From assembly GCF_003018255.1 (NCBI RefSeq), contig NZ_CP027440.1: a stretch of 64,000 bases of DNA. The stretch is one strand, 5' to 3'. The notes under the pieces are model-generated. The model did no database searches. It was given only the letters and a program-made list of their open reading frames with translations, and had not been told where the DNA came from. The stretch is from Escherichia coli (GTDB taxonomy: Bacteria; Pseudomonadota; Gammaproteobacteria; Enterobacterales; Enterobacteriaceae). The position numbers and the translations under genes were made by a program. Each line of letters begins with the position of its first letter. Position 1 is the stretch's first letter. Shown in pieces: positions 28,751 through 31,899 of the stretch.

Positions 28751-30022
28751 ATGCAGTATGAAGATGAAAACGGCGTGAATGAACCGTCACGCCGACGTTT
28801 ACTGAAAGGGATTGGTGCGCTGGCGCTGGCGGGAAGTTGTCCGGTCGCTCATGCACAAAAAACGCAAAGTGCGCCGGGTACGCTTTCACCGGATGCACGC
28901 AATGAGAAACAGCCGTTTTATGGTGAGCATCAGGCAGGGATCCTGACGCCACAACAGGCTGCAATGATGCTGGTGGCGTTTGATGTGCTTGCCAGCGATA
29001 AAGCCGATCTTGAACGGTTGTTTCGCTTGTTGACTCAGCGTTTTGCTTTTCTGACTCAGGGCGGAGCGGCACCAGAAACGCCAAATCCGCGCCTGCCACC
29101 ACTCGATTCCGGCATTCTTGGCGGCTACATTGCGCCCGATAATCTCACCATAACGTTATCGGTGGGCCACTCATTGTTTGATGAGCGCTTTGGCCTTGCG
29201 CCACAGATGCCGAAAAAGTTGCAGAAGATGACGCGTTTCCCCAACGACTCGCTGGATGCGGCGTTATGTCATGGTGATGTGTTGCTACAAATTTGCGCCA
29301 ACACCCAGGACACGGTGATCCATGCGCTGCGCGATATCATCAAACACACGCCGGATTTGCTCAGCGTGCGCTGGAAGCGGGAAGGGTTTATTTCCGACCA
29401 CGCGGCGCGTAGTAAAGGTAAAGAGACACCGATTAATTTGCTGGGTTTCAAAGACGGCACTGCCAATCCCGATAGCCAGAATGCGAAGTTGATGCAAAAA
29501 GTGGTGTGGGTGACGGCAGATCAGCAGGAGCCTGCGTGGACAATCGGTGGTAGCTACCAGGCGGTGCGGTTGATTCAGTTTCGGGTGGAATTTTGGGACA
29601 GAACGCCGCTGAAAGAACAGCAGACGATATTTGGGCGTGATAAGCAAACCGGCGCGCCGCTGGGAATGCAGCATGAGCATGATGTGCCTGATTACGCCAG
29701 CGATCCGGAGGGGAAGGTGATCGCGCTGGACAGCCATATCCGGCTGGCGAATCCCCGCACGCCAGAGAGTGAGTCAAGTCTGATGCTGCGTCGTGGCTAC
29801 AGTTATTCGTTGGGCGTCACCAATTCCGGGCAACTCGATATGGGGCTACTGTTTGTCTGCTACCAACACGATCTGGAAAAGGGCTTCCTGACAGTACAAA
29901 AAAGGTTGAATGGAGAGGCGCTGGAGGAATATGTCAAACCTATCGGTGGCGGCTATTTCTTTGCGCTGCCGGGTGTGAAGGACGCGAACGATTATCTCGG
30001 AAGCGCATTATTGCGGGTTTAA
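28751..30022 (+). CDS. efeB: Dyp-type peroxidase / deferrochelatase EfeB (423 aa, Tat substrate)
   Basis: 423-aa ORF with twin-arginine signal [16 protein letters not shown]. Confidence 0.93.
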
Positions 30023-30028
30023 TGTTTT

Positions 30029-30157
30029 TAGGCGGATAAGGCGTTTACGCCGCACCAGGCGTTCGTGCGCTGATGCGACGCTTGCGCGTCTTATCATGCC
30101 TACAATCGGTGCGGGTTCGGTAGGCCGGATAAGGCGTTCACGCCGCATCCGGCAAGC
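30029..30157. repeat. REP/BIME cluster (three REP units) downstream of efeB
   Basis: ggcggataaggcgtttacgccgcaccaggc ... gatgcgacgcttgcgcgtcttatcatgcctac ... taggccggataaggcgttcacgccgcatccggca. Confidence 0.85.
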
Positions 30158-30205
30158 TTTTACCAGTACTGCGAATCCTGCTGAAAGCACACAGCTTTTT
30201 TATCA

Positions 30206-30223
30206 CTGTCATCACTTTGTCAT
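30206..30223 (+). promoter_or_regulatory. Pho box (PhoB binding site) in the phoH promoter
   Basis: CTGTCAT-cact-TTGTCAT direct repeats with 4-bp spacer. Confidence 0.75.
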
Positions 30224-30647
30224 CTTTCCAGTAGAAACTAATGTCACTGAAATGGTGTTTTATGGTTAAATATAAGTGAATATATTGTTGCAATGAATGC
30301 GAGATCTGGTGTAATTATTAAGTAGCAGCGGAAGTTCCCGGCAGTGATAGTCAGTCACTATGGAGATCGCGGATGGTAACGTCCTGTACTGGACAATGTT
30401 TTGTTAAGCAAGGCTCCACCACTCGCGGAGATTTCTCCTCCGGTAGCAACTTCGTCACTCTGTATTTTTCTCACTTCCTCTCTTTACTCGTGTTACCGAC
30501 GCCGCAAACGGTGTGCGTAGCCGTTTTTCGGCATTTTATCCAAAAGCAAACTATGGCTTACAAGGAAGCCAACCCTCTGATGTTCGTGCGCATAATCGCG
30601 CTGCCAACGGCGCGTGTGATGAATACAAACAACTCAAGGTGCTCTCC

Positions 30648-31436
30648 ATGGGAAGACAAAAAGCAGTGATCAAAGCTCGTCGCGAGGCAAAACGTGTGCT
30701 GAGACGGGATTCGCGCAGCCATAAGCAGCGTGAAGAAGAATCGGTCACCTCGCTTGTGCAAATGAGCGGCGTAGAAGCCATTGGTATGGCCCGCGATAGT
30801 CGCGATACCTCGCCCATCCTCGCGCGAAATGAAGCGCAATTGCACTATCTGAAGGCTATTGAGAGTAAGCAGCTGATATTCGCCACGGGCGAAGCCGGGT
30901 GCGGAAAAACCTGGATCAGCGCAGCAAAAGCGGCAGAGGCCCTGATACATAAGGATGTCGACAGGATTATCGTCACCCGTCCAGTTCTGCAAGCCGATGA
31001 AGATCTTGGCTTCTTACCTGGTGATATCGCAGAAAAGTTTGCTCCCTATTTTCGCCCGGTCTACGACGTGCTGGTTCGGCGCTTAGGGGCTTCCTTTATG
31101 CAGTACTGCCTGCGACCGGAAATAGGGAAGGTGGAAATTGCGCCGTTCGCCTATATGCGTGGACGTACCTTTGAAAATGCAGTCGTCATTCTTGACGAGG
31201 CGCAGAATGTGACTGCCGCGCAAATGAAAATGTTTTTAACCCGCCTCGGGGAGAACGTGACGGTTATCGTCAACGGTGATATCACGCAATGCGATTTGCC
31301 TCGCGGCGTGCGCTCCGGATTAAGTGACGCGCTGGAACGTTTCGAAGAAGATGAAATGGTCGGGATCGTCCGATTCGGTAAAGAGAATTGCGTACGTTCG
31401 GCACTTTGCCAACGTACGCTACATGCATACAGTTAA
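30648..31436 (+). CDS. phoH: phosphate-starvation-inducible ATPase PhoH (262-aa form)
   Basis: ATG at 30648 (MGRQKAVIKARREAKR); Walker A GEAGCGKT; the same frame is open upstream (track ORF from 30513), consistent with a longer isoform. Confidence 0.85.
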   Translation: MGRQKAVIKARREAKRVLRRDSRSHKQREEESVTSLVQMSGVEAIGMARDSRDTSPILARNEAQLHYLKAIESKQLIFATGEAGCGKTWISAAKAAEALIHKDVDRIIVTRPVLQADEDLGFLPGDIAEKFAPYFRPVYDVLVRRLGASFMQYCLRPEIGKVEIAPFAYMRGRTFENAVVILDEAQNVTAAQMKMFLTRLGENVTVIVNGDITQCDLPRGVRSGLSDALERFEEDEMVGIVRFGKENCVRSALCQRTLHAYS

Positions 31437-31453
31437 GTGTATTATCGGCGCAG

Positions 31454-31479
31454 AGCCCGGGCGAACCGGGCTTTGTTTT
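31454..31479 (+). terminator. rho-independent terminator after phoH
   Basis: agcccgg-gcgaa-ccgggct hairpin followed by ttgtttt. Confidence 0.7.
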
Positions 31480-31485
31480 GGGTGT

Positions 31486-31899
31486 TTATACCCGGACTAG
31501 CGTTTTTTCTGAAACCACCATTTTTATTTGTCCCTGACTGGTGAAGTGTACGCTCATCCTGTGGCTTTTTTGTAGTTGCTGATAAAGCTCATCAGGTATT
31601 GCTAAGCTCTCTGCATATTCTTGCGGCGTATATTGGTATGCTGCATGATGCTGCTGTTTTTTAAAACGCAGCTTATTGTACAATGCCCAGACGATTAACA
31701 CGACGGCATTCGCCACTGCCAGCAAAAAATAGAACTGAAGTCGGCTTCTGGCCTCGCTTTGCCAGTAATAACCCGTCAGCAGATCAATGGCGAATAAGAA
31801 TATGAACAAAGCAAATAATGTCCACAAGATGGTTGTGGCAACATAATCAACCAGTAAACGTACTGGCGATTGTCGGGTCGTAATAATTAGATTGTTCAT
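31486..31899 (-). CDS. pgaD: PNAG synthase accessory subunit PgaD (137 aa)
   Basis: 137-aa membrane [29 protein letters not shown]. Confidence 0.92.

Follow-up and report, generated by a model that had tools for sequence, protein, structure and literature searches.

Upstream of phoH in Escherichia coli: a probable translated leader open reading frame, fused to the gene in some lineages and separate in others

Leader open reading frames (ORFs) control bacterial genes through translational coupling, as in uof-fur, or by gating Rho-dependent termination, as in mgtL-mgtA, toiL-topAI and tnaC. The closest described relative of the locus treated here is phoH (psiH, b1020) of Escherichia coli K-12, for which Kim et al. 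reportedly described in 1993 a PhoB-dependent promoter P1 with a Pho box, a constitutive promoter P2 and an ORF of 354 amino acids (aa), with a product of ~39 kDa whose N-terminus is said to have been sequenced. Several of the leader-ORF systems named above are also listed in PMC7815308. Ribo-RET has revealed internal initiation sites that give two proteoforms in genes including phoH, arcB and speA, and the in-frame internal site in K-12 phoH is conserved (Meydan et al., bioRxiv 10.1101/520783). Here, these systems are compared with the phoH locus in a 64,000-nucleotide (nt) stretch of E. coli DNA (assembly GCF_003018255.1, contig NZ_CP027440.1; hereafter the window). The overall best explanation, to which a probability of about 0.6 is given, is a phoH regulatory region with a translated leader ORF, the long PhoH of K-12 being a lineage-variable fusion of leader and gene. 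The structural statements on which this explanation builds are held with high confidence; they concern the Pho box, the homology to P2 and its ArcA site, the conserved start and the frameshift, together with an ORF that is open yet resembles non-coding sequence, the C-rich tract and the hairpins. Already known are the gene, its Pho box, both promoters and the K-12 starts of the long and the short form; the new elements are a common natural allele that removes the long form and the family-wide evidence for a translated, structured leader. Literature searches on the phoH leader, mRNA or transcript, CsrA and Rho returned no description of the phoH leader in the searchable literature.

The phoH locus of the window lies between efeB and pgaD and is orthologous to the K-12 locus. 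In K-12 MG1655, phoH is annotated with 354 aa, and its ATG corresponds to position 30373 of the window. This ATG is out of frame with phoH here because one base is missing between 30469 and 30470; as a result, a 98-codon ORF stands separate from the gene and the long PhoH is not encoded. The missing base was placed by alignment with K-12 and with closer intact E. coli alleles, and by phase tracking. The features involved are as follows.

30363–30375, plus strand: start of the leader ORF, with Shine-Dalgarno GGAG (30363–30366), a 6-nt spacer and ATG 30373, in a near-invariant start region
30373–30669, plus strand: leader ORF, 98 codons and a TGA, in a different frame from phoH and overlapping it by 22 nt
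30469–30470, plus strand: site of the base missing relative to intact alleles, after the T5 run 30465–30469 (alignments and phase tracking over 79 loci)
30636–30650, plus strand: translation start of the 262-aa PhoH, with AAGGTG, a 6-nt spacer and ATG 30648, invariant in 79 loci
30648–31436, plus strand: phoH coding sequence, 262 aa, a P-loop ATPase with PF02562 and NF007827 matches

The leader ORF ends at TGA 30667–30669, 22 nt inside phoH. An uninterrupted ORF running from an upstream start with a ribosome-binding site, as a long isoform demands, is present in K-12 and absent from the window, where three features block it: the frame of 30373 stops at 30669, TAG 30444–30446 closes the phoH frame on its upstream side, and GTG 30513 has no Shine-Dalgarno sequence. 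As judged from its sequence, the window strain should be able to make the 262-aa PhoH only. A sequence-only reading of this DNA had proposed that two promoters or two translation starts give long and short PhoH. This is supported in part: the K-12 locus has two translation starts, the 354-aa start and the Ribo-RET internal start, and a second promoter, P2 (PMC3798270), but the window encodes no long isoform. Alignment with the K-12 annotation, which that reading had put forward as a check, bears out the longer 354-aa ORF of K-12 and at the same time exposes the lost base. The conserved ATG 30373, which lies in a different frame from phoH here, had been overlooked.

The window-type allele is frequent among sequenced E. 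coli. A query of 341 nt across the region was compared with 5417 complete E. coli genomes and gave a window-type match (341 nt, at least 95% identity) in 1969 (36%) and a K-12-type match (342 nt, 90–95% identity) in 3448 (64%), shares that describe the database and not natural populations. The 98-aa ORF was found in all five window-type records checked (ATCC 11775, E166, O104:H4, 504239 and PU-1) and an intact 354-aa ORF in all five K-12-type records checked (MG1655, BL21, O157:H7, WP8-S18 and 2017.10.01CC). Over 30100–31500 the window is 98.9–99.3% identical to ATCC 11775 and strain E166, compared with 95.5% to K-12-like strains. Another deletion of a single nt, independent of the first, affects the T5 run 30524–30528; its carriers are E. 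coli E69, E. whittamii, E. albertii and the K-12-like 39EVA. In 39EVA, a K-12-type allele is turned by the deletion at the equivalent of 30524–30528 into one with a 98-aa ORF; the deletion may have arisen as a recurrent mutation or may reflect an error in assembling the homopolymer. As a separate observation, the leader spacer 30395–30500 diverges by ~25% between K-12-type and window-type alleles, with the flanking leader identical and 3.8% of the adjacent third codon positions of the core different, and the spacer haplotypes look mosaic across Escherichia.

The upstream ORF was followed through 80 species-level loci drawn from at least 568 GTDB relatives. Of these, 79 Enterobacteriaceae loci were classified, one locus being excluded for upstream sequence that was too short, and four more distant loci, from Yersinia ruckeri, Serratia, Rahnella and Atlantibacter, bring the total to 83. 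The start region GGAGATCGCG(A/G)ATGG hardly varies among the 79 Enterobacteriaceae loci and also occurs in Yersinia ruckeri, Serratia and Atlantibacter. The ORF is open to near the short start in 83 of 83 loci: it is fused in frame to phoH in 51 and unfused in 32, with end positions that range from -63 to +71 nt relative to the short start, and none of the 83 shows an early truncation. The fused class (~354 aa) includes Enterobacter, Klebsiella, Kosakonia, Buttiauxella and K-12-type Escherichia. The class that ends at +22, with an ORF of 97–98 codons, comprises 23 loci besides the window (other Escherichia, most Citrobacter, Salmonella arizonae/diarizonae and one Enterobacter), and the -23 class comprises five (Kluyvera, Pseudescherichia). 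The ORF ends at -21 in Y. ruckeri, -61 in Serratia and -63 in Rahnella, and in Atlantibacter it lies in the third frame and ends at +71; the Yersiniaceae, which stand outside the Enterobacteriaceae, therefore have a separate leader ORF and not a fusion. Frameshifts lie at no fewer than five distinct sites, among them 30482, the T run 30524–30528 and about 30545. A stop near or overlapping the start of the downstream gene, which is one mark of a leader ORF, is thus found here, in an ORF that is unusually long at 84–133 codons across the loci.

These counts bear on the possibility that the region is a plain long 5' untranslated region, with the upstream ORF untranslated and its frame open from ancestry or by chance. 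Such a reading would suit the annotation of the NCBI Prokaryotic Genome Annotation Pipeline (PGAP), which places nothing upstream of the 262-aa start in the records checked, and the 98-aa product, which has no Pfam or NCBIfam match. However, the Shine-Dalgarno sequence and the ATG are near-invariant, and the leader frame contains no stop in the 74 fused or +22 loci, at ~50% amino-acid identity, where the other two frames average 2.7–7.3; in the five -23 loci it holds its terminating stop only. In addition, a K-12 protein of 39 kDa made from this start was reportedly described by Kim et al. An untranslated region of this kind is very improbable. The distribution of the frameshifts bears likewise on recoding, in which slippage at U5 (30465–30469), either of the ribosome by -1 or during transcription, would restore small amounts of long PhoH. 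Immediately before the missing base stands UAU UUU UCU, where tRNA-Phe in the P site could pair anew in the -1 frame, and the RNA 3' end of K-12 described below maps a few nt upstream. However, the run has only five U, there is no heptameric slippery site, the fold of 30415–30470 offers no downstream stimulatory structure, the other lineages are shifted at the quite different sites named above, and the peptide is not conserved, which leaves recoding barely credible.

Whether the extension behaves as protein-coding sequence can be read from its codon positions. Across the fused lineages, codon positions 1/2/3 have entropies of 0.82/0.79/0.82 in the extension and 0.12/0.06/0.89 in the core, and close ungapped pairs differ 780/655/893 times in the extension and 423/169/3921 times in the core. 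A flat profile is also seen in the shifted ORFs (1390/1249/1309 differences), and the extension has an amino-acid identity of only about 50%. The peptide sequence is therefore almost unconstrained, although the frame stays open. Two blocks that look like conserved peptide, MVxSCTG and GLQGSQ, are invariant at all three codon positions and hence conserved at the nucleotide level. The combination expected of a leader ORF, namely a conserved start with a Shine-Dalgarno sequence, an open frame and an unconserved peptide, is found here. An AlphaFold2 model of the 354-aa form from an alignment of 24 sequences had a predicted confidence (pLDDT) of 35 throughout, the ATPase core included, and is uninformative on disorder of the extension.

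The coding test also weighs on simple decay, according to which the 354-aa PhoH is ancestral and functional, its disordered N-terminal tail has been lost here and the 98-codon ORF serves no function. In favour of decay, fusion is the state found most often (51 of the 79 species loci), indels in fused lineages are multiples of three, and there is a slight excess of changes at third positions. However, substitution is near-flat over the codon positions and the conserved blocks are invariant at all three, compensatory changes in RNA stems override the amino-acid sequence, the Yersiniaceae have a separate ORF, and an early-truncated ORF is seen in none of the 32 unfused loci. Decay of this kind is considered unlikely. 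The upstream ORF is, as far as comparison of sequences can tell, most likely a translated regulatory leader. What is conserved in it is the start region, the C-rich tract and three RNA hairpins, not the peptide, and the last two of these elements are the following.

30381–30394, plus strand: hairpin HP0, GUCC-UGUACU-GGAC, just past the leader start codon (-6.1 kcal/mol)
30400–30500, plus strand: C-rich, G-poor variable spacer, identified by its C/G ratio and resembling a rut (Rho utilization) site, a function that is putative
30554–30571, plus strand: hairpin HP1, UGGCUU-ACAAGG-AAGCCA, whose loop carries the motif AAGGA, invariant in Enterobacteriaceae
30591–30621, plus strand: hairpin HP2, with inner stem 30597–30603/30608–30614, loop CCAA and outer pairs CAU/AUG, supported by covariation

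The HP0 stem is invariant as GUCC/GGAC while its loop varies freely in the 79 loci, apart from one compensatory GCCC/GGGC. Beyond the Enterobacteriaceae, two pairs of HP1 show compensatory changes in Rahnella, and in Serratia one is a G-U pair. In HP2, four of the seven inner pairs have compensatory changes and 96.6% of cells are paired, compared with 19–61% in slid controls; its covariation of 0.186 was reached by none of 500 shuffles (0.121 +/- 0.010). Clear covariation is thus found in one of the three conserved hairpins. The segment that holds HP1 and HP2 folds with z = -2.95. The HP1 loop ACAAGGA resembles the CsrA consensus from systematic evolution of ligands by exponential enrichment (SELEX). 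CsrA was dropped as an explanation, as phoH is absent from the supplements of E. coli CsrA crosslinking and immunoprecipitation sequencing (CLIP-seq), and is kept as a lead only. The spacer has a C/G ratio of 2.36 in 78 nt, within the top 0.6% of windows of the 64 kb, and a ratio of at least 2.0 in 79 of 79 loci despite its unconserved primary sequence. Term-seq of K-12 places an RNA 3' end at 1,085,072 on the plus strand, 80 nt into the annotated phoH ORF, in two of three condition lists (PMC7815308 supplements); this end maps near 30463 of the window, a few nt upstream of the frameshift site. Rfam covariance models gave no match within 30200–30660 even at E <= 10, the only ones being to repetitive extragenic palindromic (REP)/naRNA4 sequences upstream.

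The transcripts that would carry this leader start from a promoter region that closely follows that of K-12.

30206–30223, plus strand: Pho box, PhoB site of P1, CTGTCAT-CACT-TTGTCAT, an exact consensus match that aligns with the K-12 box
30237–30242, plus strand: putative P1 -10 hexamer ACTAAT, judged from the sequence, with transcription predicted to start near 30249
30241–30294, plus strand: homologue of the K-12 footprint of phosphorylated ArcA (ArcA-P; direct repeats), overlapping P2, near-identical in sequence
30288–30317, plus strand: putative P2, with -35 TTGCAA (30288–30293), an 18-nt spacer, -10 TAATTA (30312–30317) and a predicted start at ~30321–30325

In promoters of the Pho regulon, the box replaces the -35 element and lies about 10–13 bp upstream of the -10 hexamer. 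The box CTGTCATCACTTTGTCAT at 30206–30223 matches CTGTCAT-N4-YTGTCAY exactly and has the two 7-bp direct repeats of the regulon, 4 bp apart with an 11-bp period. It is the sole match in the 64 kb when up to one mismatch is allowed, with 0.06 expected, and differs by one base from the aligned K-12 box CTGTCATCACTCTGTCAT. A consensus box here, about 440 bp upstream of the 262-aa start, had been pointed out in the sequence-only reading, and both the match, unique in the window, and the distance (442 nt from the start of the box and 425 nt from its end) stand. A TGTnA-N6-TGTnA box occupies the aligned position in 51 of the 79 Enterobacteriaceae loci. ACTAAT, 13 nt past the box, is a weak -10 match that the promoter scan did not call. 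In K-12, P2 is overlapped by ArcA repeats (PMC3798270), the ArcA site being 1084083–1084136 in older K-12 coordinates (ATGTCACTGAAATGG...TTGCAAT), at -80 to -21 of the transcription start (PMC3798270 supplement). This footprint corresponds to 30241–30294, which puts the P2 transcription start near 30321; P2 lies about 70 nt downstream of P1. The P2 blocks TGTTGCA and TGnTGTAnTTA are kept in the 79 loci, and their position agrees with the footprint coordinates. The gene is known for its role in phosphate starvation; for K-12, PhoB is reported to bind the Pho box and drive P1, with induction when phosphate is limiting. It was 25-fold derepressed in the ArcA study (PMC3798270 supplement) and up 5.95-fold in a pst mutant of avian pathogenic E. 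coli (PMC2648988). By sequence, the transcript leader ahead of ATG 30648 would be roughly 330–400 nt from either promoter. Because P1 and P2 are both upstream of ATG 30373 as well as of ATG 30648, promoter choice cannot select an isoform, and the idea that each promoter serves its own form of PhoH falls.

The position of the promoters also bears on a pair of proteins within the phoH frame itself, that is, a 307-aa PhoH from GTG 30513 and the 262-aa PhoH from ATG 30648, possibly made from different promoters. The frame concerned is this.

30447–30647, plus strand: in-frame open stretch upstream of phoH, including GTG 30513, a relic of the K-12-type fused frame

The phoH frame, noted earlier as open to at least 30513, indeed runs without a stop through the 201 nt ahead of ATG 30648, reaching back to 30447 just past the TAG, with GTG 30513 as its first possible start and GTG 30639 as the only other in-frame start codon in 30447–30647. 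The 307-aa product is what gene callers output from GTG 30513, with 1357 database members. However, GTG 30513 stands in the context acgccgcaaacggt GTG without a Shine-Dalgarno sequence and is GCG in K-12-type alleles, the region lacks coding periodicity, and both promoters lie upstream of ATG 30373. Furthermore, the open frame is accounted for as the K-12 frame downstream of the deletion: from 30470 on, its translation resembles residues ~34–92 of K-12 PhoH, and for this reason it looks like an in-frame extension. The stretch is, on the letters of the region, probably not translated in the phoH frame, and a 307-aa PhoH is highly improbable.

If the upstream ORF is a translated leader, the following sequence of events would account for its conserved parts. 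Ribosomes would initiate at 30373 and translate the leader, and the act of translation would matter, not the peptide. The translating ribosomes would cover the rut-like C-rich tract, so that premature termination would be prevented, and would stop at 30667–30669, near enough to 30648, a strong start in its own right, to be handed off to phoH. HP0, HP1 and HP2 may serve as targets through which a further factor adds post-transcriptional control. The long PhoH of K-12 would then be a leader–gene fusion gained and lost through 1-bp indels. An anti-polarity or coupling mechanism of this type, for which the rut-like C/G skew and the RNA 3' end inside the K-12 leader offer indirect support, is put forward tentatively, with somewhat less than even confidence. 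A broader form of the proposal is doubtful but worth stating: the leader may be a cis-regulatory unit across Enterobacterales, with an ORF translated for itself, a rut-like tract and three hairpins, in which phoH output is set by premature termination or ribosome hand-off, possibly via PhoH itself or CsrA, and the 354-aa PhoH of K-12 would be a by-product fusion toggled by 1-bp indels between and within species.

Several points weigh against a translated regulatory leader. We infer translation from ATG 30373 in the window strain from its conservation and from the 39-kDa product reported for K-12. Taken whole, the leader is no more stably folded than shuffled sequence (z about -0.3). No Rho score is attached to the RNA 3' end at 1,085,072, and the Rho-termination table of PMC7815308 does not list phoH. 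The third-position excess, although slight at 1.2–1.45-fold, leaves room for weak selection on the peptide. Clearly independent frameshifts number only about six, as most +22 loci share one deletion in the T run, and outside the fused lineages the finding that the ORF always reaches the start is no more than suggestive.

The gene downstream of the leader is well defined. The 262-aa PhoH is a member of the PhoH family by full-length, above-cut-off matches: it matches PF02562 with 2.2e-76 and the NF007827 equivalog with 509.8 bits (cut-off 380) over residues 9–261. The Pfam and NCBIfam PhoH models span only this core, which is 92–100% identical across the 80 species. ATG 30648 has a ribosome-binding site of its own, AAGGTG, as befits an internal start, and the Ribo-RET internal site of K-12 corresponds in the window to AAGGTG-N6-ATG 30648. 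The first ~15 codons (30648–30692) are invariant in 79 species, synonymous positions included, and contain GTGATC, the source of the TGA of the leader ORF. PGAP assigns the start at 262 aa in all non-curated E. coli records checked, even in BL21 and O157:H7, in which the long ORF is intact. Downstream of the gene lies its terminator.

31455–31479, plus strand: intrinsic terminator after phoH, a GC-rich hairpin followed by UUUGUUUU (-22.9 kcal/mol, z = -3.1)

A consensus scan for promoters and terminators missed P1, P2 and this terminator and was not relied on. The gene order is efeB (28751–30022, plus strand), phoH, and then pgaD and pgaC on the minus strand. REP elements and bacterial interspersed mosaic elements (BIMEs) fill 30025–30170, between the efeB stop and the Pho box; K-12 differs there by several indels, and sub-threshold matches to Rfam naRNA4 (RF02564) lie at 30030–30100 (53.5 bits, gathering score 59.5) and 30123–30157. 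In the otherwise near-identical E. coli E166, a DUF2726 gene takes the place of pgaD beside phoH, and the pga operon is seemingly absent or displaced. A phoH of the Enterobacteriaceae type (92–95% identity) is found on a contig labelled Chryseobacterium sp. 18061 and in a protein labelled Bacillus amyloliquefaciens; these records are probably mislabelled or contaminated.

The 354-aa reference PhoH of K-12 and UniProt holds 92 residues that about one-third of complete E. coli genomes cannot encode, and the same is true of Salmonella and most Citrobacter. These 92 N-terminal residues evolve almost like non-coding sequence, and studies of PhoH structure and function should use the 262-aa core. 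Gene callers, for their part, yield a spurious 307-aa product from window-type alleles. Because phoH is a widely used marker gene, a conserved, structured leader that is probably translated points to control of phoH at the post-transcriptional level, and the fused and separate natural alleles are a ready-made comparison for testing the leader.

Compared with K-12 phoH, the window has the same ArcA and P2 region, the same upstream ATG with GGAG and the same Pho box bar one base, and the 150 nt that precede the short start do not differ. However, a base is missing at 30469|30470, which leaves a 98-aa ORF here in place of the 354 aa of K-12, and the spacer 30395–30500 is about 25% divergent. Compared with the internal sites found by Ribo-RET, the 262-aa start is the very site of K-12 phoH and shows enhanced conservation of synonymous sites around the start. 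In contrast to the K-12 case, this start is not internal to a longer phoH ORF in the window, and one PhoH proteoform is encoded; the upstream part of the window phoH behaves as a leader that is non-coding-like and probably translated. Like uof-fur, mgtL, toiL and tnaC, the phoH leader combines a conserved start with a peptide that is little constrained; its stop lies near the start of the downstream gene or overlaps it, the ORF contains a C-rich tract, and in K-12 an RNA 3' end falls within the leader. It differs from them in its length of 84–133 codons and in alternating between separate and fused states, and here it is known from sequence comparison.

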